A DNA stretch of 64,000 bases from positions 1 to 64,000 of the forward strand of contig CAVPOC010000014.1 in assembly GCA_963706955.1 (NCBI GenBank). The letters are read 5' to 3'. The DNA is from an uncultured Verrucomicrobiae bacterium. GTDB lineage: Bacteria; Verrucomicrobiota; Verrucomicrobiia; Chthoniobacterales; Terrimicrobiaceae. Below the pieces are notes generated by a model. It made no database searches. It had not been told where the DNA came from and worked only from the letters and a program-made list of their open reading frames with translations. Of this stretch, positions 5,411 through 29,422 are shown piece by piece. The position numbers and the translations under genes were made by a program. How positions within the stretch are numbered: the stretch's first letter is position 1; each line of letters starts with the position of its first letter.

Positions 5411-7117
5411 TCAGGAATTCTGAAACCAGGCCACACCGTAGGGAGGCAGAAACACCTGCTTGTCGGCTGAAGATTCAGCGGATCCAGTAAGCGGCTTCCA
5501 GCCTGAACTATCCGCCGGCAACGGAAAGGAAATGGCGCTGGGTGTCACATTCGTTGCACAAATCACCCGGGCTCCGTTGGCTGCTTTTCTGGTGATCAAG
5601 AAGAGGTCAGGCGGGGCATCGGGGATCTCCTGCTCTGCAAAAGGATTAAAGGCGGGATGCGAGGCGCGAGCCTTCAGCATGCCTTGCATTCCTGCGAATA
5701 CCTGAGCGCGCAGACTGTCAGCCTGATCGAGCTCAGCGTCGAGCGCACCGACTTCTAGCTTCTTTCGATTGATCCGGCGTGGAATTCCACTCTCCTCGGC
5801 TCCTTTGCGATCCCCTCGAGATCCGAAGAGCGAATGGAAGTATATCCCTGGAAGTCCCCGTAGCGCCAAGACGATTGAGTGCGCGGCGAGAAAACGAGCG
5901 GCCTGCGTGTGCAGAGATTCCCCGGCAGTCGGAGTCGAAAGTGCGTCGAAAAAGCTAATATTAAGCTCGTACGGGCTCTTCGTCCCATCGGGATTGTTTT
6001 TGTAGGAGACGAAGCCGTTGTGATCAACGGCCGTCTGCACCAAAGCATCGATCTCTCCTGGATCGAGGATCCCGCGCGCGGGGTTCAATCCGATCCCGTC
6101 ATGCGAAGCGAGGAAATTGAAGAAGGTGACACGCTCTGAAGGAAGCACGAGGGCTTGCGCCCATCGACGAAGCCGCGTGGCATCCCCAGTCCGCATGGTG
6201 TGAAAGACCAAAGGGGGCAGGGCGAAATTGTAGACCAACTGGGCCTCATTTGATCCGTCGCCGAAGTAGGAGACATTATCGGAGTGCGGGACATTCGTCT
6301 CTGTGATCAGCTGGACTTCCGGAGCGGCTTCATCGAGCACGGCTCGCATCAGCTGAATCGCGCGATGCGTCTGTTCCAAGTGGATACACGAGGTCCCTGG
6401 GATCTTCCAAAGAAATGCGATCGCATCCAGTCTGATGTAGCGGGCACCCTTGCTGACATAAAAGAGCAGCACCTCGAGAATCCGAAGCAGCATGCGCGGA
6501 TCCGAAAAATCAATGTCTGCCTGGTCGGCACTAAATGTCGTCCAGACTCGTTTCCTGCCGGCAGCCGTTTCAAATTCCGTCAGCAGCGGGAGAGTTCGCG
6601 GACGCACCACCTTGGAAAGGTCGGGCTCGCCGGAAACCGTAAAGAAGGCCGACTCCCAGCCTGCCTCCTGCCTCAGGAATTTCTGAAACCATAAGCCTTG
6701 GGCAGAGGCGTGATTAAAGACGGCGTCAAACATCATGTCGAAGTTGCGGCCGAGCGACTCAATATCACCCCACGTCCCCAAAGCTGGATCGATCGAATAG
6801 TAATCCATTACGGAAAATCCGTCGTCCGACGAACTGGGGTAGAAAGGCAGAATGTGGACGGCGCTTATCGTCCTGGCGACGCGCTTGGAGAGAAAATTCG
6901 TCAACGTGGCCAATGGAGGTTCGCCAGTTGCCCGCACCTGATCACCGTAGGTGATCAACATGCAGTCGGCTTCGGTCAGCTCGTTTTTCTTGGCGGCCAC
7001 CGCCGAAGAACGGTTTTGGCGCGATTTTCTGGCCAGCATCTCGATCGCCTCCTCGAGCTCAGGTGCTGCCGCTTCTCCATAGAGGAAGGCCAGATGGTGC
7101 TTTACAGTTTCCTTCAT
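5411..7117 (-). CDS. ycjM: GH13_18 sugar phosphorylase, glucosylglycerate phosphorylase (YcjM)-like
   Basis: ITYGD, HILPFYPSSSDDGFSV, RLDAIAFLWK, TETNVPH, ASHDGIG; loop YKNNPDGTKSPYELN resembles YcjM. Confidence 0.8.
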   Translation of the reverse strand: MKETVKHHLAFLYGEAAAPELEEAIEMLARKSRQNRSSAVAAKKNELTEADCMLITYGDQVRATGEPPLATLTNFLSKRVARTISAVHILPFYPSSSDDGFSVMDYYSIDPALGTWGDIESLGRNFDMMFDAVFNHASAQGLWFQKFLRQEAGWESAFFTVSGEPDLSKVVRPRTLPLLTEFETAAGRKRVWTTFSADQADIDFSDPRMLLRILEVLLFYVSKGARYIRLDAIAFLWKIPGTSCIHLEQTHRAIQLMRAVLDEAAPEVQLITETNVPHSDNVSYFGDGSNEAQLVYNFALPPLVFHTMRTGDATRLRRWAQALVLPSERVTFFNFLASHDGIGLNPARGILDPGEIDALVQTAVDHNGFVSYKNNPDGTKSPYELNISFFDALSTPTAGESLHTQAARFLAAHSIVLALRGLPGIYFHSLFGSRGDRKGAEESGIPRRINRKKLEVGALDAELDQADSLRAQVFAGMQGMLKARASHPAFNPFAEQEIPDAPPDLFLITRKAANGARVICATNVTPSAISFPLPADSSGWKPLTGSAESSADKQVFLPPYGVAWFQNS

Positions 7118-7153
7118 CGACACATTTTACTCACAAACCAATCGAAAAAGTCC

Positions 7154-8440
7154 ATGAAGTTACGTTCGTCACTTGCTCATTTTCCCAAGCGGATCGGATT
7201 TATCTCGACGCGTTTTCACGGTACCGACGGCGTGACCTTGGAAGCGGCCAAATGGGCGCATATCCTGGAATCGGAGGGCGCCGATTGCTTCTGGATGGCC
7301 GGACTGCTCGACAAGCCCGAGTCGGTGAGCTACCTCGATCCGCTCGCCTTCTTCAATCATCCAGCCATTCTCGATGTGCAAGGCTATCTCTTCGGGAAGA
7401 CAACCCGGCCGCGCAATATCTCCGATCGTGTGCACGAACTGAAGACCGGACTAAAAACGTCCATTTACCAATTCATCGAACGCTTCGATCTCGAGCTTCT
7501 CATCCCTCAAAATATCCTGGCGATTCCAATGCATGTCCCCCTGGGGCTGGCAATGACCGAAGTGATGGCCGAAACAGGACTTGCTTCGATCGCGCACCAT
7601 CATGACTTCACGTGGGAACGCGAGCGATTCACGATTACCGCCGGTGCGGATTATCTGGCGGCCGCATTCCCTCCCACGCTGCCGTCGCTGGTGCATGTGG
7701 TGATCAATTCCATGCAGCAAAAGGACCTGGCGCGTCGATATGGACAAGCTTCCACGATTATCCCGAACGTTATCGATTTCGAAACGCCGCCGCCCCAGCT
7801 GGATGAATACTCGCGAGATTTTCGCCAGGAGATCGGACTTCGCGATGACGATATTCTCGTCCTCCAGCCAACCCGCATCGTCCCGCGAAAGGGGATCGAG
7901 CACGCCATCGAGCTCCTCCGCCGCTTGAAGGAGCCGAAAATCAAGCTGGTGCTTTCACATCCAAGCGGTGACGAAGGCGATTCCTATGCCAGGCTGTTGC
8001 ACGACCGCATCGCGGATGCCGGCATTGACGCGCTCTTTGTGGCGGACCGGATTGGGGAGACCAGAGGTTTTAACGCCGCAGGCCAGAAGGTCTACACTCT
8101 CTTTGACATCTACCCTCACGCTGATCTTGTCACCTATCCGAGCTACTACGAAGGCTTCGGAAATGCCTTCCTCGAAGCGGTCTATTTTCGAAAGCCAGTC
8201 GTCGTCAATACCTACGCCGTCTATGCTCGAGACATCGATCCGCTCGGATTCAAGACAATCGAGATGTCGATGCTCGTCACCAACGAAGTCGTTGAGCAGA
8301 CCCACGAGATTCTGCATAACCCTTCGTTGCGCGAAGCCTGGGGGACCATCAATTACGACTTGGGGATGAAGTTTTTCTCTTATTCGGTGGCACGTCGCAA
8401 ACTGTCCGGGCGCATTGCCAAGCTCTTCGGCGAAGCCTAG
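7154..8440 (+). CDS. GT4 glycosyltransferase, mannosylglucosylglycerate synthase-like
   Basis: IGFISTRFHGTDGVTLEAAKW, HHHDFTWER, QPTRIVPRKGIE, YPSYYEGFGNAFLEA. Confidence 0.7.
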   Translation: MKLRSSLAHFPKRIGFISTRFHGTDGVTLEAAKWAHILESEGADCFWMAGLLDKPESVSYLDPLAFFNHPAILDVQGYLFGKTTRPRNISDRVHELKTGLKTSIYQFIERFDLELLIPQNILAIPMHVPLGLAMTEVMAETGLASIAHHHDFTWERERFTITAGADYLAAAFPPTLPSLVHVVINSMQQKDLARRYGQASTIIPNVIDFETPPPQLDEYSRDFRQEIGLRDDDILVLQPTRIVPRKGIEHAIELLRRLKEPKIKLVLSHPSGDEGDSYARLLHDRIADAGIDALFVADRIGETRGFNAAGQKVYTLFDIYPHADLVTYPSYYEGFGNAFLEAVYFRKPVVVNTYAVYARDIDPLGFKTIEMSMLVTNEVVEQTHEILHNPSLREAWGTINYDLGMKFFSYSVARRKLSGRIAKLFGEA

Positions 8441-11949: not shown

Positions 11950-12141
11950 GAGGTCCGAGGCGGGAGCCCTATTGTGCGTGTTGGTTCGAAAGAGTCAAAC
12001 TTCATCGAAATGCTCCCGTTGATGGTTTTCGCCACACCACGGCGGGATTTGCTCCCAAAGCACAATTTGCCGCCAAGGCAGAGCAATTTACCGCTAACAA
12101 ATAGCTGGCGCAGACTCTCGTTTTTTCGTCAATAATTGGCT

Positions 12142-15025
12142 ATGACTGATACACTGCGCACCTTTGATGCCGGCAAAGGGAAAACCGGCTTGTACTACTC
12201 GTTGCCAGCCCTGGAAGAAAAAGGGCTCGGCAAGATCTCGCGACTGCCCGTCAGTATCCGAATCGTCCTGGAATCGGTTCTGCGCAATTGCGACGGAAAG
12301 AAAGTCACCGACAGGGACGTCGCCATGCTGGCGGCTTGGAATGCGAAATCCCCTGCGCCGGAGGAGATTCCCTTCGTCGTCGCCCGAATTGTGCTCCAGG
12401 ATTTTACCGGCGTGCCGCTGTTAGTGGACCTAGCCGCGATGCGGACGGCGGTCGCCAATTTGAAGAAAAATCCCAAAATTATCGAACCCTTGGTTCCCGT
12501 GGATCTCGTGGTGGACCACTCGGTGCAGGTGGACTTCTTTGGGTCGGCAGATGCTTTGCGACTGAACCTCGAGATGGAGTTCAAGCGCAATCGCGAGAGA
12601 TACAGGTTCCTGAAATGGGGTCAGCAGGCTTTTGAGACCTTCGGAGTCGTCCCGCCTGGGATCGGCATCGTCCATCAGGTGAATCTCGAGTTCCTGGCCA
12701 AGGGCGTCCTCAGTCGAATCGCCGAAGGGCACCATCTATTTTCCCGATACGTTGGTCGGCACCGATTCGCACACCACCATGATCAATGGTCTCGGCGTCG
12801 TCGGATGGGGTGTGGGCGGAATCGAAGCCGAAGCCGGAATGCTCGGCCAACCGGTCTACTTTCTTACGCCTGAGGTTGTCGGCGTCCACCTCACTGGCAC
12901 CCTGAAGGAAGGTGTCACTGCGACCGATCTGGTTCTCCGGGTCACGGAAATGCTCCGCAAGCAGAAAGTTGTCGGGAAATTCGTTGAATTCTTTGGTGAA
13001 GGGGCCGCGGCGCTCTCAGTTACCGATCGAGCCACCATCGGGAACATGGCCCCCGAATATGGCGCCACCATGGGTTTCTTCGGCGTAGACGAGGAAACTG
13101 TCGCTTACTTGCGCGGCACCGGGCGGAGCGAGGCGCTCTGCGCGGCTTTCGAAAACTACTACAAGGCGCAGAGACTCTGGGGAATCCCGCGTAAGGGTGA
13201 GGTCGATTACACTGTGGAACTCGAGCTGGATCTCGGTTCGATCGTGCCCGGTGTGGCCGGTCCGAAGCGACCCCAGGACCGAATCAATCTTCCGGAGCTC
13301 AAACAGACCTTTGAGGCACTTTTCGAGAAACCGCTCTCCGACGGCGGCTATGGCAAGAAGTTTGCCGATCTATCGTTGAGGGTCCCCGTGCGCCTCAACG
13401 GTTCTCGCCCCGCTGTCGAAGCTCAGATGCCCTCCACGGATGCGAGTTCCAACCACGCTGAAGAGGGGTTGCCTCGCAACGAGTCGGAGCTCATTACTAA
13501 TCGTCCAACGCCAGACAGAACGACGTCTCAAACGTCTCCCTACCAGCAAGCGGAAACGGAGATTGGCCACGGAAGCGTTCTTATTGCAGCCATCACAAGC
13601 TGCACGAATACGAGCAACCCGAGCGTCATGCTCGGCGCGGCGCTGCTTGCTAAGAAGGCTGTTGAACGGGGATTGAAGGTGAACCCAGCCGTCAAGACAT
13701 CCCTGGGCCCGGGCTCACGTGTCGTGACTGACTACCTGGAGAAGACCGGTCTTCAGCCCTACTTCGACAAGCTCGGGTTTCAAACCGTCGGGTACGGGTG
13801 TACAACCTGCATCGGAAACTCAGGCCCGTTGCACCCAGCACTTGAGGAGGCGATTGCTAAGAATGATCTGGTTGCGGCCAGTGTCCTGTCCGGCAATCGT
13901 AACTTTGAGGCCCGTGTGCACCAAAATATTCGTGCCAATTTCCTGATGTCCCCACCGCTCGTCGTCGCTTTCGCGCTGGCTGGCACCGTCGATATCGACC
14001 TGATCTCCCAGCCTCTTGGAAAGGACAAAGATGGCCGGGACGTTTACTTGAAGGAGATATGGCCGACGCTGGAGGAGATTCGCTCAGCCATGGCGTCCGC
14101 CCTCAAGCCGGAGGTCTACCGCAAACTCTATTCCGATTTTGCCGAGCAAAATCCAAAATGGAACGAGATACCTTCGTCGACCGGAGAAGTTTATCAATGG
14201 GATCCCAAGAGCACCTACATCCAAGAGCCGCCATTCTTCGTTGGATTTGGGATGGAGCCAGGTCATATCAGCGAAATCAAGGGGGCTCGCGCGCTTGGCA
14301 TCTTCGGCGATTCCGTCACGACCGATCACATCAGCCCGGCAGGCGCCATCAAGAAGACCAGTCCAGCGGGCAAATTTCTTCTCGAACATGGCGTGCCCGT
14401 GGAGGATTTCAATAGCTACGGCTCACGCCGCGGAAACGATCGGATCATGACACGCGGCACGTTCGCCAATGTGCGGATCAAGAACCTGATGGTTCCAGGC
14501 GTAGAAGGTGGCTATACTCTCTACCTCGGCCAACGCGAGGTGGCTGCTCCTGACAAGGAAATCTCCGCCACAAAGGCGGGAAAGCCGACGTTCATTTACG
14601 ATGCCTGCATGGCCTACAAAGAAGATGGAGTTCCGCTCATCATCTTCGCCGGACAGGAGTACGGCACCGGTTCCAGCCGCGATTGGGCTGCCAAGGGAAC
14701 GAAACTCCTCGGAGTGAAAGCGGTCGTGGCCCAGAGTTTCGAGCGTATCCATCGCTCCAACCTTGTAGGAATGGGTGTTCTTCCCCTCCAATTCCCCGAT
14801 GGCGTGACCGCTCAAAGCCTCGGTCTCGACGGAACAGAAATCTCCGATGTTCTCGGCCTTTCGAATGAAATCTCTCCCCGGCAGGACGTCACACTGCGGA
14901 TTACGCGCAGGGATGGTTCGGTAATCGAACAACCTGTCAAGCTGCGCATCGACACGCCGATCGAAGTTGACTACTACCGCCACGGAGGCATCCTGCCATT
15001 CGTCCTTAGACAACTCCTAAGCTAA
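12142..15025 (+). CDS. acnA: Aconitate hydratase A, one frameshift near 12730
   Basis: [70 protein letters not shown]. Confidence 0.95.
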
Positions 15026-20401: not shown

Positions 20402-22105
20402 CTAAGAATCGTTCCTTCCCGGCGGGGGAGCGCTTGGTGAATTGGCGGGACGCACGAGCCTCTCTCGCGCTGGGGATCGCGCGTGCAGCTTGAGGATCCG
20501 GCGCACCTCCTCGATGGCTTGGCGGTTTTGATGCGCGCTGTGGTTAGATGGCACGATAAGTTCGCTCTGCGCCTCCTCGAGATGCGAGCTCCAGTATGGG
20601 ACCACCCCGTCGCTTGAGTTCGGCGTGTCGCCGCGGCCACGATCGCCCATGATCGAATGATAGGGAATTCCCTTTGTTACTGGGATCGTGTTGATCGCCC
20701 TAACAAAGCGGTTTGAAGGTGCGAGTGTGTCGATGCTGTTCGGTATCCGCCTTAACGGGAGGTCACCGGCGGACATAGTCATGATCTTGATGGCGTCTCC
20801 GCCAGCCCTCAAGAGCGTGATTGGCAATCTCACCAGGCTGGCGCCCAACCGCCCGATGCGGTGAGCTGCCATGTCGCTTCCTCGAAGCGGAGCGGAAATG
20901 AAAATTACGCGGCCAACTTCCGGCCGATGACGGAAGACGAGGGCTTCTACGAATAGCTCCTTACTTTCCGGCTTGAGATTCACGTCTTGCACCGGCTTGC
21001 GGAAGAGCTGCATCCAGAGCTTTTCGTCGGCATCGGTAATCAATAGCCGACTGATGCAGCCTCCCATGCTATGCCCCATGACGACCATGCGCTTGCGCAA
21101 GGGGAACTTCTTCTCGATGGCATCGAGCTCTCGCCGCAGGATCATTGCCGAATAGGGATAGGGATAACCGCTCGGATAGCTAAAGAACCAGAACTGGTAA
21201 TTGCGGCGGATCTCTTCGTCGCCGCGCAATGTGTTGATCATTGGCGTCCACGTGGCTGGCGTATCCATAAGACCATGCACCACGAGCACGACAAACTTAT
21301 TGGGATCGTACGGCTGGAGTCGGGCGATGCGCGCGGTGTCGGCGTATTTCTCCGGGCGCAACAAACGTGTCAGTTCAAATTTCTTCGGATTGTTCTGCGC
21401 AAGCAGCACAGCGACTGGCACCGTAAAATCGGCGGCCAGCGGAAAAGTGTCTCCATTCAAGCGAACGGTTTCCACCGCCAGAGGATCCTCAAAGGAAAGG
21501 ACGCAACGTTTGCCCTCAAACCGGGCAATCGCGGTGACGCCGTAATATATGCGCGGAAGAGTAAACTCTGTCCGCGCGTCCTTGTATTCGTCACGCCCGA
21601 TGGCCACCAGCGGTGCCCCGACACCATTGCGGATTGTGCGCTCGCTTACATATTTGCCATGCACGTCAAACTGATCCGTGGGCGTAAATTCATACAGCGC
21701 TGGATTCCGCTGCGGACGCGGATCGCGGCGGTGAGTCAGAACAAAGCCGCCGTCCGGGCCGGGCACGGTCAGCGGCCGCGTCCATGGATCAAGCTGGGCG
21801 TTGCGAATCGTTGTGAAGACGCGCGCCAGGGCGAAGTTGTAATCGCGCGTCGCATCCGCGTCCTTCGGATTTCGGGCAAGTTCCCGGGTGGCCGCCTCCA
21901 GGGCGGTAAGGTAACCCTCCAGGGCAACCAACGGCCTTCGTCGTTCTCGAAGGGCCTTTAGGATCGTCGACTCCCTACTGGTAGGAGCGCTCGAACTCGA
22001 AACTGCACGAAATAAAGGTCGCTTTTCCTTGACGGTGGAGTACGAGCCGCAACCCGCAACAGTGATGCCAACAATGGCGACCAGGAAAAAACGGGCGGCT
22101 TTCAC
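20402..22105 (-). CDS. Alpha/beta hydrolase lipoprotein (lipase/esterase-like)
   Basis: Lipobox VAGC; VHGL, GHSMGG, DGVVPY, NHSAH. Confidence 0.85.
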   Translation of the reverse strand: MKAARFFLVAIVGITVAGCGSYSTVKEKRPLFRAVSSSSAPTSRESTILKALRERRRPLVALEGYLTALEAATRELARNPKDADATRDYNFALARVFTTIRNAQLDPWTRPLTVPGPDGGFVLTHRRDPRPQRNPALYEFTPTDQFDVHGKYVSERTIRNGVGAPLVAIGRDEYKDARTEFTLPRIYYGVTAIARFEGKRCVLSFEDPLAVETVRLNGDTFPLAADFTVPVAVLLAQNNPKKFELTRLLRPEKYADTARIARLQPYDPNKFVVLVVHGLMDTPATWTPMINTLRGDEEIRRNYQFWFFSYPSGYPYPYSAMILRRELDAIEKKFPLRKRMVVMGHSMGGCISRLLITDADEKLWMQLFRKPVQDVNLKPESKELFVEALVFRHRPEVGRVIFISAPLRGSDMAAHRIGRLGASLVRLPITLLRAGGDAIKIMTMSAGDLPLRRIPNSIDTLAPSNRFVRAINTIPVTKGIPYHSIMGDRGRGDTPNSSDGVVPYWSSHLEEAQSELIVPSNHSAHQNRQAIEEVRRILKLHARSPARERLVRPANSPSAPPPGRNDS

Positions 22106-22126: not shown

Positions 22127-23540
22127 CTAGGTCTTCGATTTCGTTGATCGGCGAACGCCCGCCGTCCGATCAGTGCGATTGCTCCCCCTGGCCGCGGTGT
22201 CGGACTCATAATAGTCCAGGCCTGAGTGATCGAGCACCTCTTCGCCCATCAGGATCCGAAGGGTATTCTGGAGCTTGAGATGTTGAACGAAGAGGTCGTG
22301 TTCCGGCTTCAAGTCGGGCCGCGACAACGGCGATTTGAAGTAAAACGACAACCATTCCTGGATGCCACCCATCCCCGCGCGCTGCGCCAGATCCAGGAAA
22401 AGCGCTAAATCCAGGACGATGGGCGCAGCCAAGACCGAGTCCCGACAAAGGAAGTTTATCTTGATCTGCATGGGCATGCCACACCATCCGAAGATGTCGA
22501 TGTTGTCCCATCCTTCCTTTTCGTCACCGCGCGGCGGATAGTACTCGATGCGGACCTTGTGGAAGATTTCACTATAAAGTTCTGGATAAAGCGAGGGCTG
22601 CAACAGCGTATCCAAAACGCTCGCCTTGCTGACCTCCTTGGTTCGAAAGGAGTCGGGGTCATCCAGAACTTCGCCGTCTCGATTCCCGAGTATGTTCGTC
22701 GAAAACCAACCCTTCACGCCGAGCATCCGTGCCTTTAGGCCTGGTGCGATCACTGTCTTCATCAACGTTTGGCCCGTCTTGAAATCCTTTCCAGTGATCG
22801 GAACTTTGTTCTTCTCAGCTAATTGGATCAGGGCTGGGATGTCGACGGAGAGGTTCGGTGCGCCATTTGCATAAGCGGTGCCAGTCTGAAGCGCTGCATA
22901 GGCGTAGATCATCGACGACGATATGTCCGGCGAATTCTCCCGCAGGGCTCTCTCGAAGGCTTCCAACGAAGCGTGGACACGCTTCGGCTCCATATAGGTC
23001 TCAGTGGACCCGCACCAAACCATCACGGCGCGCTTCAGGCGGTGCTTTCGTTTGAAACTTTCGATATCGCGAATGATCGCCTGCGCCAGTTCCATCTTGT
23101 CGCTGGCCTGTTTTACATGCGTACCTTCCAACCTGCGCACATAGCGACGGTCAAAGGCAGCCCGGAAGGGCCGAATCTCGCTCAACTCTTTGCGGACCGG
23201 CTCAAGAACATGAGGAGAAAGCACACCCGAGCGAATCGCCGTGCGATAGCAATCCTCCCCGGAAACATCCCACCCGCCAAAAACGAGGTCCTGCAGATCC
23301 GCCAGTGGAACGAATTCTTTGATCAATGGGTAGCGGGCGTTCGTCCGTTTTCCCAAACGAATTCGTTGTAGTTGCGTAATCGAACCAAACGGCTGGGCCA
23401 GGCCTTTACGCACGAGAAGGACTCCCGCGATGAAGGTTGTTGCGACTGCGCCCAGGCCGGGAAGCAAGACCCCCAGCCGTCCGTCGGCAGGTTGGATTTC
23501 CTTGGCGAGCTCTGGATAGTACGATGTTTCGGGTACTCAT
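22127..23540 (-). CDS. ino1: Myo-inositol-1-phosphate synthase (1-bp frameshift near the start)
   Basis: LPGLGAVATT, FGGWD, VWCGSTE, ANGAPN, GKDFKTGQT, STNILGNRDG, FLCRDSVLAAP; ATG at 23540 overlaps the upstream TGA. Confidence 0.93.
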
Positions 23541-24715
23541 GGGATAAGTTTCTGAGAGATAATGGGGTGACTTCCCGCGGACGAATTCTTCAAGCTTAGG
23601 GCGGCCAACACCAGAAAATACAAGGGGGCACCGACAGCAGCCATATACAAGAACCATTTGACCTTTCCGGCGACAGCCAAGACGCCGACCAGGTAGATGA
23701 AATCGCGTCGCGCCAATTGGTCCGCGATTCTGGCAATGGAATCGGAATTATTCCTCCCAGGTGCGGGTGCATGGACGACCGAGGTAAAAAGCGGGCCGTT
23801 CGAGGCGTTTTCCTTCATCGTCGTCCAATAGACCAGCGCGGCGGACAGCAGCGTCCCCGCGACTGCCGAGGCGGCGAGACGAAATGGTCCAGGTCCTGGT
23901 GTCTCGGCATGCAGGTTCACGGCAATCGCCGAGAAGACTGCCGAGTGGACGACATTATCACCCCAAAAGTCGATCAAGCCACCCCAACGCGATTCCGCGA
24001 ATTTCAGGCGCGCCAGCTCGCCATCGCAGCCGTCTAAAACCGAATGGAGCCAAAAAAGAGTCGCGCCGAGCAGATGCTGGGCCGGCCTTGGACCAGCGAA
24101 GAAGAGAGCCCCAATCAAGCCAACCCCGATACTGATCAGCGTCATCTCGTTCGGAGTAATCCTCGTGTCTACGAGCCGTCTGGTCACCGCGAGAGAAATG
24201 TTGCGTTCCACATGGCGCGACATGAAACCCTCCGACTCCTTTATCAGTCCGTGAAGAAGCCATCGCTCGACCTGTTCGCGATCAGCGTCGCTCTGCAACC
24301 GTACCCACTCCTGCTCTCCGAGGCTGATGCACTTACATCCCAGGCGTTCTTTCAATTTGGCAACGAGAGCTGGGTAGCTTTCACATGTTTCAAACGTCGA
24401 AGAAAGAAATTGTCGATCACTGCACCGCACAGCGGCGAGCGAATCCGTTCCGCCAACCATGGTGAGGGTTTCCGGCTCAGGCTGGAGAGCGCTCAGCCGC
24501 TTCCAGCCCGCGTCACTGAGCAGAACGTCCGGGAACAGCACGAGAAAGCCTTCGGGCAACTCGGCAGCTTCGCGCAGCCTGAGACGCGTGATTACTTGCT
24601 TAAACCCCAATTTTTGCGCCTGCAACGCGACACGATCCTCGAAGTCCAATCCCAGCAGACGAACATGAGCCGAAGGGCATGCGCCCCAGAAAGGAATGAC
24701 CAACGCCTCGATCAT
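23537..24715 (-). CDS. CDP-alcohol phosphotransferase (DIPP-synthase-like) with degenerate N-terminal NTP-transferase-like domain
   Basis: ITPNEMT and LDGCDGELARLKFAESRWGGLIDFWGD (CDP-alcohol phosphotransferase signature); several TM helices. Confidence 0.88.
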   Translation of the reverse strand: MIEALVIPFWGACPSAHVRLLGLDFEDRVALQAQKLGFKQVITRLRLREAAELPEGFLVLFPDVLLSDAGWKRLSALQPEPETLTMVGGTDSLAAVRCSDRQFLSSTFETCESYPALVAKLKERLGCKCISLGEQEWVRLQSDADREQVERWLLHGLIKESEGFMSRHVERNISLAVTRRLVDTRITPNEMTLISIGVGLIGALFFAGPRPAQHLLGATLFWLHSVLDGCDGELARLKFAESRWGGLIDFWGDNVVHSAVFSAIAVNLHAETPGPGPFRLAASAVAGTLLSAALVYWTTMKENASNGPLFTSVVHAPAPGRNNSDSIARIADQLARRDFIYLVGVLAVAGKVKWFLYMAAVGAPLYFLVLAALSLKNSSAGSHPIISQKLIP

Positions 24716-24719
24716 GAGA

Positions 24720-25733
24720 TCATAGTGGTAAATACTCCTGCGCGCGGCTGGAAGCTTTGGATTGTTCAACCAAACGCAGGCAAAGCTCCGCGATCCTAAG
24801 ATTGCTGCCCGGACGAGACGAACCCTCCAACTCTCCGGCGAATTCTTCCGCGACGCACCTGAACCACTCTGGATGATGTGATCCGCTCGAGAGCTCTGTC
24901 TCGAAGTGAAACCTCTCCTCGCCTCCATCGTTCCGCACCAGCTTCAGCCAATCGTCCGCGATCGTTAATCGGGCCAGCGTTCCCTGGATCGTTCCCAAAT
25001 TGCGACGCTGCGGCGACGCCCAGGTAAGGAAGATCTTCGCGGTGCCGCCCTGCCTATTGATGCTGTCAAATCTGATCGTCACTACCGCGGTATCCTCTAC
25101 GGCGAGGTCGAGATGACTGCGGTTTTCCAGTGAAGCCTGCACCGCCGACGGATCGGCTCCCATCCAGTCGATCACCAGATAGAAGGCGTGCCAGCCATGA
25201 TCAACGAGGATACCACCCCCAGCTTTGTCGGGATCCAGCCGCCAGTTGTCCGCCTCCGTCGCGATTGAGGGTCCGGTGCGGAGCACCTGCCAGTCGCAAT
25301 GATGGATCTGACCCAGTGCACCGCTCGAAATTAGCTCGGTGATCTTCCGGCAAATCGGCGCGAACTTCCAGTTGTGGACGGTGAAAACGAGTTTCTCCCT
25401 TTCTTTTGCAAGCTGGACGATCTGATCAAGTTGCCAGGTCGCAAGGACCAGCGGCTTTTCGCAGAGAACGTTCCACCCTCGTCCAAGTGCTTCCATGACC
25501 ATGTTGAAATGGGTGTGCGGCGGGGTGCAAATGTCGACGAAGTCCAGATCTTGGGGCAATTGCGCGAGGCTATCCGTGCAGAGCGCCTCCGGCAATGCTC
25601 TCGAGAACAAGTTGCGCCGTTCGGAGTGAGAATCTACGCCTGCCACGATTCGAAATTCCGACTTGCTCTTCCAACCCGGCAGATGCCCGTTCAAGGCGAC
25701 GTTCCCCAATCCAATGATCGCGCCTTTATACAT
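24720..25733 (-). CDS. Gfo/Idh/MocA family oxidoreductase
   Basis: IIGLGNVA, ICTPPHTH, VLCEKPL, GGGILVDHGWH. Confidence 0.9.
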   Translation of the reverse strand: MYKGAIIGLGNVALNGHLPGWKSKSEFRIVAGVDSHSERRNLFSRALPEALCTDSLAQLPQDLDFVDICTPPHTHFNMVMEALGRGWNVLCEKPLVLATWQLDQIVQLAKEREKLVFTVHNWKFAPICRKITELISSGALGQIHHCDWQVLRTGPSIATEADNWRLDPDKAGGGILVDHGWHAFYLVIDWMGADPSAVQASLENRSHLDLAVEDTAVVTIRFDSINRQGGTAKIFLTWASPQRRNLGTIQGTLARLTIADDWLKLVRNDGGEERFHFETELSSGSHHPEWFRCVAEEFAGELEGSSRPGSNLRIAELCLRLVEQSKASSRAQEYLPL

Positions 25734-25808
25734 GGGAGAATGCAATGTGAACAACCCGAGCGTCAATTTCTTGCTGTCACTCTCCACCGCGGATCCCGGT
25801 GAATCGCG

Positions 25809-27176
25809 CTACATCCTGTATGTGCCATCTTGTTGCACCTCCGCAAAAACCTCTTCGAGAATTTCTGCCGCCTGGAGAGCGGACCTCTCGGAAATCGTCA
25901 AAGGCGGAATAATGCGAATCGGATTGGTATAGGTCATGGACAGTAGTCCGCGATCCATACAACGCTCGAATATCCGACGGCTAACTGCCTTGTTTACGCG
26001 CTCTTTAGACTTCTTGTTCTTCACCAACTCGATTCCGAGCATCAGGCCGCGGCCTCGCGCATCCCCTACGAATTCGAAGCGCTCGACGAATGCCTGAAAT
26101 CGCTTGAGGAGAACATCACCGATCTTTCGGGAGTTCTCAGCGAGCTTCTCATCCAGAATAATCTCCAGAGTGGCCAAGCCGGCTGCGGCCGCGAGTGGAT
26201 TGCCTCCATAGCTTGACGAACTTCCCGAAGGGAGCGCATACGGTTTCGCCCGACTATGCTCATCGGTCGAGATGACTGCGCTCAACGGAAACCCTCCGCC
26301 AATTCCTTTGCCGACCGTCAAGATGTCAGGCGCAAGCTGGTCGTGCAAAAACCCCCACATCGCTCCGGCTCTCCCGAAAGCCGTCTGCATCTCATCAGCA
26401 ATGAGGAGAGCGCCAAACTCCTTCGCGATCGACTGGACGGCGGGTAGAAACTCCGGTGGCGGAACGACATTTCCCGCCGTCCCCTGAATCGGCTCCACAA
26501 TGATGGCGGCAATCTGCTGTTGGGTTTGCAGTTTGATGACCTGGCGGAGATGTTCTGCACAAGCAATCCCGCAGGCGGGATAGCGGAGCTTCAACGGGCA
26601 CCTGTAGCAATACGCAAACGGAGAGAGATAGAGTCCGGGCATAAAGGGGCCGTAGTCCTTCTTGAATTCGTCGCCCAGCAGGCCAAGGACCCCACCGGTC
26701 TTGCCATGAAATCCGCCCCAAAAACCGACAAACTCGAATTTCTTGGTCACCGATTTTGCCAATCTGAAAGCAGCCTCGACAGCTTCGGCACCGCCCGAAA
26801 AAAGTTGAATGCGGGTCAGCGGCGGGGGCAAGAGAGAGGCCAACAGGCGAAAGAACTTCGTGCGCACCTCGGTCGTGAAGCTTCCAAAGGTCAGCTCCTC
26901 AAGCTGCCTCTTCAGCGCTCTCACATAGTATGGGTGGCAGTGACCCACGCTGCCAACGCCGATTCCTGACACGAAGTCGATATACTGCTTGCCATCCTCG
27001 TCGGTAACGACTTCGTTGCGTCCGCGCGCCAAGGCAACGCCCGCATGAAGCGCAATCCCTTGAAAACCGGGCGAGATGTAGTTTTGCTCCTCGGCAAAGA
27101 TCTTGGCTGCTCTCGAGGTGCCGCCCGCCTGCTGAGGCGAATGAACTCTGCGCGCCCCAAACTCCGTCTTCTTCAT
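25809..27176 (-). CDS. Class III PLP aminotransferase
   Basis: SGGAEAVE, FHGKT, EPIQG, IADEMQTAFGR, DILTVGKGIGGG. Confidence 0.9.
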   Translation of the reverse strand: MKKTEFGARRVHSPQQAGGTSRAAKIFAEEQNYISPGFQGIALHAGVALARGRNEVVTDEDGKQYIDFVSGIGVGSVGHCHPYYVRALKRQLEELTFGSFTTEVRTKFFRLLASLLPPPLTRIQLFSGGAEAVEAAFRLAKSVTKKFEFVGFWGGFHGKTGGVLGLLGDEFKKDYGPFMPGLYLSPFAYCYRCPLKLRYPACGIACAEHLRQVIKLQTQQQIAAIIVEPIQGTAGNVVPPPEFLPAVQSIAKEFGALLIADEMQTAFGRAGAMWGFLHDQLAPDILTVGKGIGGGFPLSAVISTDEHSRAKPYALPSGSSSSYGGNPLAAAAGLATLEIILDEKLAENSRKIGDVLLKRFQAFVERFEFVGDARGRGLMLGIELVKNKKSKERVNKAVSRRIFERCMDRGLLSMTYTNPIRIIPPLTISERSALQAAEILEEVFAEVQQDGTYRM

Positions 27177-27183
27177 TTCGGTC

Positions 27184-28044
27184 TTAGGCCACCGGATGGG
27201 AAGTTTTCGTGAGGATATGACGGGCAATCGCCGCGGAAGCTTCGCCTCGAAATAGTGCAAAGCTCGGCCACGCGTTGATGTCGATGAGATACACTGAACC
27301 GTCGGAAGCAACCACGGCGTCTCCTCCGAAAATTTCTAGCCTGAGCGCTCTCGCTGCGGAGAAGAAGGCCTCTTTCAAATCACTTTCGGAGAAGGGATGG
27401 CCCTTTAATTCCTGGTCTTCGTGGTAGAACCATTTGAACCAGACTTCGCCCGACTCGCCGACTCCGTAGAGCTTTACCAAATCTCCCTCGATGTGCTCCT
27501 GCCACACCGACCTCGTCACATCGCGTGATCGGAAAGCCCGGACGAGCGCCCAAGCCTCTTCGGCCGATCGGGCCAGCGACACATCTCCTTCCTGGGTGTT
27601 ATGAACGTCGCCGCGCTTGATCCAGAGTGAACGTGTGCCTGCATGTCGAAAGTGCGACCGCAAACGATCTTCCAGATCCGGCGAACGGGTCGCGACAAGC
27701 TCGCTTTTTGGGAAGGGCACCCCCGTGCTAAACAAGAGCGGGATCATCCGATGCCGGTAAGTATTCCGAATGGCGCTGACGCAATTGATCAGCGTGGCTC
27801 CCTGTCGTTCCCAAGCGCCTAAACGCTCCAGCATCCGCTCCTGCTCACACATCACAAACGCTGTCTCTGGACGAGCACGCTTCCACCACCCCGGTGAGAT
27901 TTGCTCCGGCCGGACAAGTTCAACCTCGACGCCGTCAGCTTCAAGAGCCTCTGCGGTCAAGCGCAGGATCTCAAAATCATCGAAGACGCGATCAGGTGAG
28001 TGAAGGGTCTCTCTAAAAATTCCAATCAGTGGACGCGCTCTCAA
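27184..28044 (-). CDS. ATP-grasp protein (ITPK1-like motifs)
   Basis: WIKRGD, WQEHIEGDLVKLYGVG, IFGGDAVV, YLIDINAWPSF. Confidence 0.75.
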   Translation of the reverse strand: MRARPLIGIFRETLHSPDRVFDDFEILRLTAEALEADGVEVELVRPEQISPGWWKRARPETAFVMCEQERMLERLGAWERQGATLINCVSAIRNTYRHRMIPLLFSTGVPFPKSELVATRSPDLEDRLRSHFRHAGTRSLWIKRGDVHNTQEGDVSLARSAEEAWALVRAFRSRDVTRSVWQEHIEGDLVKLYGVGESGEVWFKWFYHEDQELKGHPFSESDLKEAFFSAARALRLEIFGGDAVVASDGSVYLIDINAWPSFALFRGEASAAIARHILTKTSHPVA

Positions 28045-28742
28045 ACGTCACCTCTTATCCGCGATAGGAAACGTTCGGCAAGATTAATGTCTTCAACGGT
28101 ATCCACATCGATGACATCGCCAAGCGGCACGGCCCGAAAGGGAAATCCCTCCCGCAGGAGTTGTCCCAGGAATGCGCGCAACGACGAAATCCCATCCTCC
28201 CACTCTCGCTCGAAAATAGCAGCGGTGACTCCATAGATCCCGGCCGTCGCGAATTTTCCACCGGAAGCGCCCAGGTTCACGATTTCTAAACTCCCCGGTT
28301 TCGTGGCGACCCAAAGTGGTTTCTCGTCGTGGACAAATGAAGTGACCGCCAGCAGGACCTCACGGTCCGAGTCTGCCGGAGAAGCAAGCATCGTCTGCCA
28401 ATCCTGCGGCGAACAGATCGAATCGACGGTACAAATCAGGTGCCTCCCGGGCCCGAGGGCGCGTCCTACTCGCCAGAAACTCTCAGAGGACGAGCGTGTC
28501 GTCTTCACAAGGATCTTTAGCTCGAGAGCTGCGAAATGAGCGCGCACCCAATCGGCGCACTCCTGTTGCGTTTCGTTGAAGATAATTGCCACACGCTCGA
28601 CTCCGAGCTCGAGAAACTGGCGAAGAGTGTGCCCAATCAAGGGAGTGCCGGCGATGGGAATAAGCGGTTTGCTGAAGGTGAGGCCATCCATTTTCAGCCG
28701 GCGACCCTCGCCTGCCGCGATGATACCTGCGGAGCTTATCAT
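28041..28742 (-). CDS. NTP transferase (sugar/inositol-phosphate nucleotidyltransferase)
   Basis: IIAAGEGRRL..KPLIPIAG, TVD, DVDTVEDI. Confidence 0.88.
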   Translation of the reverse strand: MISSAGIIAAGEGRRLKMDGLTFSKPLIPIAGTPLIGHTLRQFLELGVERVAIIFNETQQECADWVRAHFAALELKILVKTTRSSSESFWRVGRALGPGRHLICTVDSICSPQDWQTMLASPADSDREVLLAVTSFVHDEKPLWVATKPGSLEIVNLGASGGKFATAGIYGVTAAIFEREWEDGISSLRAFLGQLLREGFPFRAVPLGDVIDVDTVEDINLAERFLSRIRGDV

Positions 28743-29422
28743 CGCAGAATCTCACGCAGGTCCAGCAACGATCGAATCACATGATCGTCTCGGCAGCATG
28801 CCGGTCGCTCTGGATGCAGTGTATTCAACCAGACGTGCGGCATGGCCAGTGCCTTGGCAGGCGCCATGTCCCGGAGTGGGTTGTCACCCACAAACATCAC
28901 CTGCTCGGGTAGACAACCGATCTTTTCGACGGCGGCCTGAAAGATTGCCGGCTGCGGCTTTGACACACCCACGCGTGCCGAGTCGATGACCGTGTCGAAG
29001 AATTGGCGGTAGCCAATCTCCTCACAAAGGAATTCGAGGTTGCCGTAAAAGTTTGAGACAATTCCCAGGCGGTAACGCGCGGAAAGTTCTTCGAGCAGCG
29101 CCCTGTTCCGCTCAAGGCAACGCAAGGAGTCCACATGGAAGCGTTCGGCGATGCGGCGCGCCAAACGATGATCCTGTCGATCTCCCCACCGGAGGACCCT
29201 GCTCACCTGCTCTAGGAGCGTTCCCGCGTAGTCCACCTCGTGCAATTTCTCTTCGTTGAGGGAATCATCCGATGCGCAAAAAAGCCGCGCAAATGTGTGA
29301 AAATCCCAGTCTATTCCCTCCTCGCGATAGATGGGATAAAATCGCTCTTTCCACGGAATCCCGTCAGCATCGAGAGTGCCGCCGAAGTCAAAGAGGATGG
29401 CTCTGGGAGCATTGAAATTCAT
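28739..29422 (-). CDS. HAD-family hydrolase (phosphatase)
   Basis: LFDFGGTLD, VSNFYGN, KPQPAIF, VGDNPLRDM. Confidence 0.88.
   Translation of the reverse strand: MNFNAPRAILFDFGGTLDADGIPWKERFYPIYREEGIDWDFHTFARLFCASDDSLNEEKLHEVDYAGTLLEQVSRVLRWGDRQDHRLARRIAERFHVDSLRCLERNRALLEELSARYRLGIVSNFYGNLEFLCEEIGYRQFFDTVIDSARVGVSKPQPAIFQAAVEKIGCLPEQVMFVGDNPLRDMAPAKALAMPHVWLNTLHPERPACCRDDHVIRSLLDLREILR

Follow-up and report, generated by a model that had tools for sequence, protein, structure and literature searches.

The closest described relatives of the protein examined here, the product of an ATP-grasp gene at 27184-28044 on the minus strand of a 64,000-nucleotide stretch of DNA (hereafter the window) from an uncultured Verrucomicrobiae bacterium (contig CAVPOC010000014.1), are the ITPK kinases and the RimK-type ligases. 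The ITPK family (human ITPK1, 2q7d/2qb5; Entamoeba ITPK1, 1z2n; AtITPK4, 7pup; PF05770) has the same ATP-grasp fold and aligns with the window protein at Z scores of 17.4-18.5 over ~250 residues with 15-18% identity. The available text of PMC6900528 describes ITPK1 as phosphorylating Ins(3)P, inositol 3-phosphate derived from myo-inositol-1-phosphate synthase (hereafter MIPS), and that of PMC7614388 describes plant AtITPK4 as an N-terminal HAD-like domain fused to the ATP-grasp kinase domain. The RimK/LysX-ArgX ligases (4iwx, 5zct, 7qyr, 3vpb; PF08443) are the best structural neighbours, with root-mean-square deviations (rmsd) of 2.6-3.2 over 252-256 residues, and they share the compact length of ~280-300 amino acids (aa).

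Related operons have also been described. In the IPCT/DIPPS system of hyperthermophiles and the MIPS-IPCT-BEPIS operon of Rhodothermus marinus (Jorge et al. 2015), inositol phosphate is cytidylylated and a cytidine diphosphate (CDP)-alcohol transferase then acts, as proposed here (PMC4587543, PMC9246714); in the available text of PMC4587543, these systems are presented with neither an ATP-grasp enzyme nor a HAD partner nor any amination module. Heaver et al. 2022 (PMC9246714) reported a putative alternative cluster for inositol lipids in Bacteroides (Phocaeicola) vulgatus and Prevotella, which comprises the nucleoside triphosphate (NTP)-transferase BVU_RS13095, the phosphatidyltransferase BVU_RS13105, the HAD protein BVU_RS13115 and MIPS. 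In the main text of that paper, the authors call their pathway unconfirmed, require no kinase and treat the HAD protein as a speculative synthase, and the terms 'ATP-grasp' and 'RimK' and the intervening locus tags have 0 occurrences there.

We found that the window gene belongs to a new, very widespread and unnamed ATP-grasp family, which is a core yet overlooked component of CDP-inositol type inositol-lipid operons; our literature search found no paper assigning a function to the gene. We give an even chance to the protein being an ITPK-like kinase of inositol, amino-inositol or its monophosphate, which would feed the CDP activation of a lipid head group.

A conserved gene in inositol-lipid operons

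The ATP-grasp gene is an open frame of 286 codons with a TTG start, which shares 4 nucleotides (nt) with the stop of the upstream nucleotidyltransferase gene, and the start position of its homologues is identical. It is a real, conserved gene, because it has many homologues: 804 proteins among 8000 scored candidates and 1231 representatives at 50% identity were matched at E<=0.001, with 928 of these representatives at E<=1e-10. Relatives are encoded in at least 590 species genomes (at least 600 pattern matches), and the family spans many uncultured soil phyla. In a quick IQ-TREE tree of 114 representatives, with support from the Shimodaira-Hasegawa-like approximate likelihood ratio test (SH-aLRT) only and used solely for this split, the family divides into two clades (SH-aLRT 97). 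The larger, 34-row subclade of the second clade, together with P0277 and including a Muribaculaceae protein, served as the gut-clade query. The gut clade is very large, a query from it alone having matched 5234 clusters at 90% identity at E<=1e-20.

In the window, the gene lies in a run of eight co-directional genes whose spacing ranges from -4 to 69 nt (overlaps and gaps):

28739-29422, minus strand: HAD-IA phosphatase, ~227 aa from the ATG at 29422 (longest open reading frame to 29644); PF00702, E 5.1e-17
28041-28742, minus strand: MobA-like/IspD-like nucleotidyltransferase, 233 aa; PF12804, E 1.2e-10; weak NCBIfam IPCT/DIPPS match, 2.3e-6
27184-28044, minus strand: ATP-grasp enzyme (P0001), 286 aa; unnamed family; ATP-grasp fold, predicted local distance difference test (pLDDT) 90
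25809-27176, minus strand: class III (omega) aminotransferase, ~455 aa from the ATG at 27176; PF00202, E 3.7e-95
24720-25787, minus strand: GFO/IDH/MocA oxidoreductase; PF01408 and PF22725; TIGR04380 IolG, 1.3e-15, below cut-off
23537-24715, minus strand: CDP-alcohol phosphotransferase, ~392 aa from the ATG at 24715; PF01066, E 2.3e-9
22127-23467, minus strand: MIPS; PF07994, E 1.6e-96; PF01658, E 2.7e-32
20402-22105, minus strand: alpha/beta-hydrolase, 567 aa; PF12697, E 9.2e-6; final gene of the run

The original prediction, made from the letters of the window, had placed the gene inside an ino1 operon, and this is borne out by MIPS, which is encoded on the same strand four genes downstream. 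The tie it drew between an ATP-grasp enzyme and inositol metabolism likewise agrees with the structural model (pLDDT 90) and the operon context. We propose that the adjacent nucleotidyltransferase is a CTP:cyclitol-phosphate cytidylyltransferase. The CDP-alcohol phosphotransferase has an intact motif, D299-G-x2-D-G-x2-A-R...G-x3-D-x3-D, in its membrane domain, and its best NCBIfam match is the IPCT/DIPPS model NF041135 (4.5e-24, below cut-off). Ahead of the membrane domain stands a soluble N-terminal part of ~170 residues, starting MIEALVIPFWG, which may be a degenerate cytidylyltransferase-like domain. Inositol 2-dehydrogenase (IolG) is one of the weak relatives of the oxidoreductase.

We compared the 80 genome loci closest to the window protein by tblastn with the window proteins (E<=1e-8); many of these soil-clade loci end at contig ends. 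The common order is HAD, nucleotidyltransferase, ATP-grasp, class III aminotransferase, GFO oxidoreductase, CDP-alcohol transferase and then often MIPS, and it is kept in Verrucomicrobia, Methylomirabilota/Rokubacteria, Acidobacteriota, Alphaproteobacteria, Nitrospirae, Chloroflexi, Binatia and Thermodesulfobacteriota. The nucleotidyltransferase, adjacent to the ATP-grasp gene, and the aminotransferase were each found in 77/80 loci, HAD in 73/80, the oxidoreductase in 69/80 and the CDP-alcohol transferase in 61/80. The MIPS count by tblastn, 30/80, is an underestimate, because a Pfam search found MIPS in 5/5 genomes and in 3/5 it lay inside the locus as a divergent protein that tblastn had missed. 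In the alphaproteobacterial loci L036, L047 and L064, a divergent, shorter MIPS that tblastn missed and that has a PF01658 match lies upstream of HAD at ~6900-7300. A lack of MIPS in genomes bearing the cluster would force the use of a salvage kinase; all five genomes tested encode MIPS, so its presence does not discriminate between the readings. In one further locus, L093 (G001:C6:104000-122000), the aminotransferase, transferase and MIPS of the canonical cluster each align in several shifted pieces, which suggests frameshifts from sequencing errors, or decay.

The gut-clade query returned 80 metagenome loci, several of them labelled human gut; 29 loci shorter than 8 kb were dropped and 51 were kept. 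The gut and rumen order is nucleotidyltransferase, ATP-grasp, CDP-alcohol transferase, LPG-synthase-TM, HAD and MIPS, with the nucleotidyltransferase in 45/51 loci, HAD in 46/51, MIPS in 36/51, a detectable CDP-alcohol transferase in 19/51 and LPG_synthase_TM in 14/51. Neither an aminotransferase (0/51) nor an oxidoreductase (0/51) was found in these loci of at least 8 kb. MIPS, NTP-transferase, CDP-alcohol transferase and HAD are thus all four present both in the window operon and in the gut-clade loci. The ATP-grasp gene is independent of the amination module, because the gut clade keeps it in loci without aminotransferase or oxidoreductase; it is core to the cytidylyltransferase/CDP-alcohol transferase/HAD/MIPS set and not to the amination module. 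A locus with HAD, ATP-grasp and CDP-alcohol transferase but no aminotransferase in Acidobacteriota (L065) had been considered as proof of the same point and was dropped, since the same genomes hold the canonical cluster and the paralogue keeps the soil-clade residues.

The gene composition of the gut clade fits the 'alternative inositol lipid cluster' as given in the main text of Heaver et al., with the ATP-grasp gene added between the NTP-transferase and the transferase; the window cluster differs from it by the additional oxidoreductase and aminotransferase. A database entry, 'hypothetical protein, partial [Phocaeicola vulgatus]', shares 80% identity with the ATP-grasp protein of gut locus L144, and from locus-tag spacing and gene order BVU_RS13100 is probably the P. 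vulgatus ATP-grasp gene. By Pfam, the genes for NTP-transferase, ATP-grasp, CDP-OH_P_transf, LPG_synthase_TM and HAD follow one another closely in L144. Between HAD and MIPS, at 12536-14625, then come an MFS transporter and a PfkB-family sugar kinase, the latter on the opposite strand. As PfkB enzymes include known myo-inositol kinases, this PfkB protein is an alternative kinase candidate for that gut-type cluster.

Gene fusions also link the family to its partners. Eleven of the 150 best representatives are much longer than 300 aa; by Pfam, eight of them join NTP-transferase to ATP-grasp, P0138 joins HAD, NTP-transferase and ATP-grasp, P0130 joins ATP-grasp to CDP-alcohol transferase, and one has no extra domain. 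The nucleotidyltransferase is thereby fused to ATP-grasp in nine representative proteins, and P0377 of the gut clade is a further NTP-transferase and ATP-grasp fusion. No aminotransferase or oxidoreductase domain was found by Pfam in the fused forms tested. Kinase-nucleotidyltransferase fusion is a common salvage architecture. We consider the fusions to be moderate evidence, because fusions follow gene adjacency.

In a sample of 401 Acidobacteriota genomes, 8 had a match (G029 included). A second cluster in this phylum holds LPG_synthase_TM, HAD, ATP-grasp and CDP-alcohol transferase (L065, 7260-12475; L091, 8422-12243), followed in L065 by a sphingolipid-type desaturase (PF00487, PF08557). 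The genomes with this second cluster also hold the canonical one; ATP-grasp, HAD and CDP-alcohol transferase therefore duplicate together.

Fold and catalytic residues

An AlphaFold2 model of the window protein, built with a 24-sequence alignment, shows three domains with a mean pLDDT of 90.0 and a predicted template modelling score (pTM) of 0.87. In Foldseek, the best 500 counted matches all had E<=0.001 and 24/24 listed were ATP-grasp enzymes. VIA-align, an exhaustive comparison with 48,161 chains, gave 75 chains at Z>=8, of which the top 50 were ATP-grasp proteins. On the strength of the predicted model, we confidently assign the protein to the ATP-grasp superfamily. The VIA-align matches to the relevant families were as follows:

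RimK (4iwx): Z 22.4, rmsd 3.2, 256 residues aligned
ArgX (3vpb): Z 22.4, rmsd 2.6, 252 residues aligned
human ITPK1 (2qb5): Z 18.5, rank 17, 18% identity
StITPK1 (8oxe): Z 18.4
PPIP5K2 (3t54): Z 18.1
EhITPK1 (1z2n): Z 18.1
AtITPK4 (7pup): Z 17.4

The window protein matched no Pfam or NCBIfam model at its cut-off. The family scans gave a chance match to Glyco_hydro_42 at 0.008 and rimK_fam at 0.0036, far under cut-off, while TIGR00768 scored 16.7 bits against a cut-off of 143.4. Neither PF05770 (Ins134_P3_kin) nor PF08443 (RimK) matched the window protein even at E<=10, and no family member reached the curated RimK cut-off in scans of 24 and 114 members; one relative, P0096, bears a precomputed PF08443 label. 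Single-sequence searches of the PDB returned PsnB alone for the window protein (0.006) and weak ITPK1 and RimK matches for P0096. With a profile of 114 sequences, the matches were PsnB (2e-8), AtITPK4 (1.2e-6), RimK (2.6e-5) and human ITPK1 (4.4e-4). In an ESM Atlas feature search, an Asgard ITPK cluster ranked 7 (score 0.96) among RimK-like clusters. Since the fold, profile, per-member Pfam and language-model results split between RimK and ITPK, the family is a separate branch between the RimK-type ligases and the ITPK kinases, and it may be related, on the bacterial side, to the ITPKs of Asgard archaea and eukaryotes.

Among the 114 sequences, K143, G187, G240, G241, D255 and N257 are invariant, D242, R97 and H184 are at least 90% conserved, and K191, F192 and Y193 are at least 96% conserved. 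The ATP-phosphate lysine K143 and the metal-ligand residues D242, D255 and N257 align with the Mg ligands of ITPK1, RimK and PsnB. The N-terminal domain holds invariant motifs of its own (R11, S16-P17, D23, M65 and N87). At two positions the related families separate:

Lys191 strand: family vKFYgv; AtITPK4 FKFYVLGE (Lys); human ITPK1 not aligned; RimK DIRCFVVG (Arg); PsnB DVRVYVID (Arg)
Asp255 metal site: family IDlNdWPSF; AtITPK4 VDLNYLPSF (Asp); human ITPK1 IDINAFPGY (Asp); RimK MEVNSSPG (Glu); PsnB LELNASAMF (Glu)

PPIP5K presumably also has Lys and Asp at these positions. The three strings on which the original prediction relied, QEHIEGDLVKLYGVG (residues 182-196), LEIFGGDAVV (236-245) and YLIDINAWPSF (252-262), are all present in the minus-strand translation of 27184-28044. 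The C-terminal resemblance to ITPK1 to which it pointed is recovered by the family profile, which aligns to human ITPK1 residues ~270-313, LFGIDIII...VIDINAFPGY (E about 9e-3; 4.4e-4 with the 114-sequence profile). Its description of the Lys and D-I-N residues as kinase-like is consistent with the alignments, in which Lys191 and Asp255 match ITPKs and RimK and PsnB have Arg and Glu. The alignment to AtITPK4 (7pup) spans profile positions 178-275, with K-F-Y, G-x-D, D-x-N and P-S-F matched, so that the Asp-Asp-Asn pattern of Mg ligands, the K-F-Y strand and the P-S-F turn are shared with AtITPK4. The alignment to RimK covers positions 69-272, and the RimK loop 'gefrsnlhrgg' (RSNLHRGG) is an insertion with no counterpart in the family profile. 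In these profile alignments, the RimK set (Arg of the D-I-R strand, Glu-x-Asn metal site and RSNLHRGG-type loop) is absent from the family, and the ITPK set (Asp-Asp-Asn metal ligands and a Lys-bearing K-x-Y/F strand) is present in the alignments to AtITPK4 and human ITPK1. Judged from sequence, the Asp-Asp-Asn ligands and the Lys strand may mark kinase chemistry. According to the available text of PMC7614388, the reacting phosphate in ZmITPK1 is coordinated by a Lys, a Tyr two residues on and another Lys, all three being conserved in AtITPK4; our guess is that the Lys/Tyr pair is the K-x-Y of the Lys191 strand.

The family also differs from ITPKs. Only the C-terminal third is covered by the sequence alignment, the invariant motifs of the N-terminal domain are particular to the family, and the window protein has no significant PF05770 match. 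The family is bacterial, resides inside a CDP-activation/transfer operon and is probably a single-step biosynthetic enzyme rather than a multi-substrate signalling kinase. A HAD protein accompanies ATP-grasp in the bacterial operons, fused in P0138, as a HAD-like domain does in AtITPK4 according to the portion of the literature cited above; this likeness may be a coincidence, and the AtITPK4 HAD-like domain was absent among the best 60 of 94 PDB matches of the window HAD.

The two clades share the same catalytic core, and differences appear elsewhere. The soil subgroup with known context has E12, H15, R19, D22 and E67, and the gut proteins checked have A/G/S12, Y/F15, H/N/S19, N22 (R in 1/4) and R67. 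An ammonium group bound by the soil enzyme, against a plain substrate in the gut enzyme, would shift the residues in this direction. A strict screen over the broad soil clade gave no fully fixed clade difference: at position 67, Q accounts for 68% of 69 soil-clade rows, the window subgroup carries E, and 34/34 gut-subclade rows carry R. The charge-switch argument is thus valid only for the subgroups with known context.

Proposed reaction and competing readings

We suggest that the soluble ATP-grasp enzyme acts like the ITPK/PPIP5K branch, by which the gamma-phosphate of ATP would be transferred to a hydroxyl of a cyclitol or cyclitol monophosphate without an acyl-phosphate. In the window operon, MIPS would supply inositol 3-phosphate, and the GFO oxidoreductase and the class III aminotransferase would act on one ring carbon, whose C-OH would become C=O and then C-NH2. 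The ATP-grasp kinase would then add a phosphate, the adjacent nucleotidyltransferase would activate the product as a CDP-cyclitol, and the CDP-alcohol transferase would move the phospho-head group onto a membrane alcohol. The phosphate that came from MIPS would be removed by the HAD phosphatase, ahead of the kinase step or once the transfer is done, so that kinase and phosphatase together would shift the phosphate from the MIPS position to the linkage position. MIPS phosphorylates the D-3 position and phosphatidylinositol is D-1 linked, which may be the reason for the kinase and phosphatase pair. The analysis shows the fold, the conserved ATP and Mg residues, the two ITPK-like catalytic positions, the neighbourhoods, the fusions and the independence from the amination genes; we infer the kinase chemistry, the substrate, the order of the steps and the lipid product.

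Since the same catalytic core occurs with and without the amination module, the ATP-grasp reaction cannot require an amine. The known small molecules of the gut-type operon are Ins3P, CTP, CDP-cyclitol and a lipid alcohol, with no obvious carboxylate-amine pair. Given the partnership with a phosphatase and a nucleotidyltransferase, the absence of an evident ligase substrate and the ITPK-like residues, a phosphotransferase is the most economical reading. We hold more tentatively, at rather less than even confidence, that bacteria own an ITPK-related family of cyclitol or cyclitol-phosphate kinases which, with HAD, repositions the MIPS phosphate for inositol lipids in gut Bacteroidota and for an amino-inositol phospholipid in soil phyla. 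No report of this amino-inositol phospholipid class was found in the literature searched.

Several results weigh against a kinase, and most of them favour an ATP-grasp ligase that decorates the head group. Such a ligase would convert a carboxylate to an acyl-phosphate and join it to the amine of amino-inositol in the soil clade or, as an ester, to an inositol hydroxyl in the gut clade; it would yield an inositol lipid bearing an acyl or aminoacyl group, which an MprF-like (LPG_synthase_TM) protein could flip. We regard this ligase as a serious competitor, but as less likely than the kinase. The closest folds are amide ligases, with RimK and ArgX at Z 22.4 against 18.5 for human ITPK1, so the structural comparison with ITPK1 did not favour the original prediction, and ITPKs are not the nearest solved structures in VIA-align. 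The Foldseek leaders are the ATP-grasp ligases DcsG, ArgX, PsnB, RimK and Ddl (E about 1e-15), and the best PDB sequence match (2e-8) is PsnB, an ester/amide macrocyclase. In per-member Pfam scans, RimK matched slightly more members than Ins134_P3_kin, with 11/24 (best 4.4e-6) against 9/24 (best 2.3e-3) at E<=1 and 4/114 against 3/114 at E<=0.01; with no match of the window protein at E<=10, this leaves no recognisable PF05770 membership. The Lys/Asp versus Arg/Glu split between kinases and ligases is empirical, drawn from four aligned families, and is no established rule. MIPS, encoded in all five genomes tested, already gives a phosphorylated inositol, so a kinase is needed only if the phosphate must move or a second one be added. 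The aminotransferase is directly downstream in 77/80 soil-clade loci, and LPG_synthase_TM genes occur in Acidobacteriota and gut-clade clusters. MprF relatives of LPG_synthase_TM flip aminoacylated lipids. Some ATP-grasp enzymes form esters, among them D-Ala-D-lactate ligase and the microviridin/plesiocin cyclases, and the lack of an amine in gut operons is thus compatible with a ligase. However, with the aminotransferase and oxidoreductase missing (0/51) and the catalytic core the same, the nucleophile cannot be an amine throughout the family. Where RimK and PsnB carry Arg and Glu, the family carries Lys and Asp; it also lacks the RSNLHRGG loop of RimK, and the match to RimK is 2.6e-5 at best. 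No conserved neighbour provides a carboxylate substrate, and the inositol-lipid operons offer no amino-acid or peptide substrate for a RimK-like enzyme. The fusions join nucleotidyltransferase, HAD and CDP-alcohol transferase, with no aminotransferase domain in the fused forms tested, and a ligase leaves no obvious role for the co-travelling HAD phosphatase. The ligase that the original prediction offered as its alternative, acylating an inosamine, is accordingly weakened by the sister-clade operons without amination genes, although the nearest folds are still ligases.

A true ITPK-type inositol polyphosphate kinase, making InsP2 and higher soluble forms for signalling or phosphate storage and acting apart from the lipid genes, is very improbable. 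The ITPK-like C-terminal motifs and the adjacency of MIPS fit such an enzyme, as do the use of Ins(3)P as a starting substrate by ITPK1 and the presence of ITPKs in Asgard archaea, in the available text of PMC6900528 and PMC8024741, respectively. Against it, the near-constant coupling to nucleotidyltransferase and CDP-alcohol transferase, sometimes as a fusion, suits a committed step of biosynthesis better than signalling, the annotated cluster genes include no further inositol phosphate kinase, and the window protein has no significant Ins134_P3_kin match. There is no indication of inositol polyphosphate signalling in any data of this analysis. The inositol polyphosphates implied by the original prediction therefore give way to a kinase of lipid head-group biosynthesis, to which the conserved partners point (a cytidylyltransferase-like enzyme, CDP-alcohol transferase, HAD and in places an MprF-type flippase domain). 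We also think it unlikely that the protein has another role, either as a phosphotransferase on a lipid-linked head group or as a non-catalytic or regulatory subunit of the cytidylyltransferase/transferase pair. The fusions to both partner enzymes would fit such roles, and fold alone does not reveal function; on the other side, ATP/Mg-binding residues that are invariant in 114 diverse sequences argue for catalysis, and no membrane segment was seen in the ATP-grasp protein. Of the bacterial inositol-phosphate kinase first predicted, what stands is the support from the catalytic residues and the inositol context, and what does not are the Pfam membership, the nearest fold and the polyphosphate implication.

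Neighbouring genes and biological meaning

The alpha/beta-hydrolase at the end of the window run adjoins the cluster in only 3/80 loci, L001 (Terrimicrobium sp.) and L002 and L003 (uncultured Verrucomicrobiae bacterium), which are the nearest to the window's own. Its N-terminal half, ~270 aa, carries no annotation. Whether it belongs to the pathway is uncertain; one possibility is an additional step peculiar to the lineage, e.g. by a lipase or acyltransferase. On either side, the annotated genes are of the housekeeping kind, with PutA, a ketoacyl synthase, aconitase and Obg among them, and no hopanoid gene was seen among the annotated window genes. Two overlapping open reading frames, 12136-12873 (plus strand) and 12752-15025 (plus strand), match the Pfam model Aconitase at profile positions 4-116 and then 125-463 followed by Aconitase_C, which suggests that a frameshift or an assembly error has split the aconitase gene.

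For the CDP-inositol type cluster in gut Bacteroidota, the only published scheme that we found, that of Heaver et al. 2022, omits the conserved ATP-grasp gene in its main text, and the family includes Phocaeicola vulgatus, a dominant human gut species. According to the available text of Megson et al. 2015, Tannerella forsythia, which lacks MIPS, takes up external inositol into its lipids, and no inositol kinase is recognisable in it. If the ATP-grasp enzyme is a ligase, it would still yield a decorated inositol head group not described before. If it is a kinase, as we suggest, it would be the step missing from the published pathway, the HAD phosphatase would gain a clear role, and the family would offer a candidate for the inositol kinase of bacteria, which earlier studies failed to identify. 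The amino-inositol lipid of the soil phyla would then be testable, with a predicted head group ~1 Da lighter than that of phosphatidylinositol.

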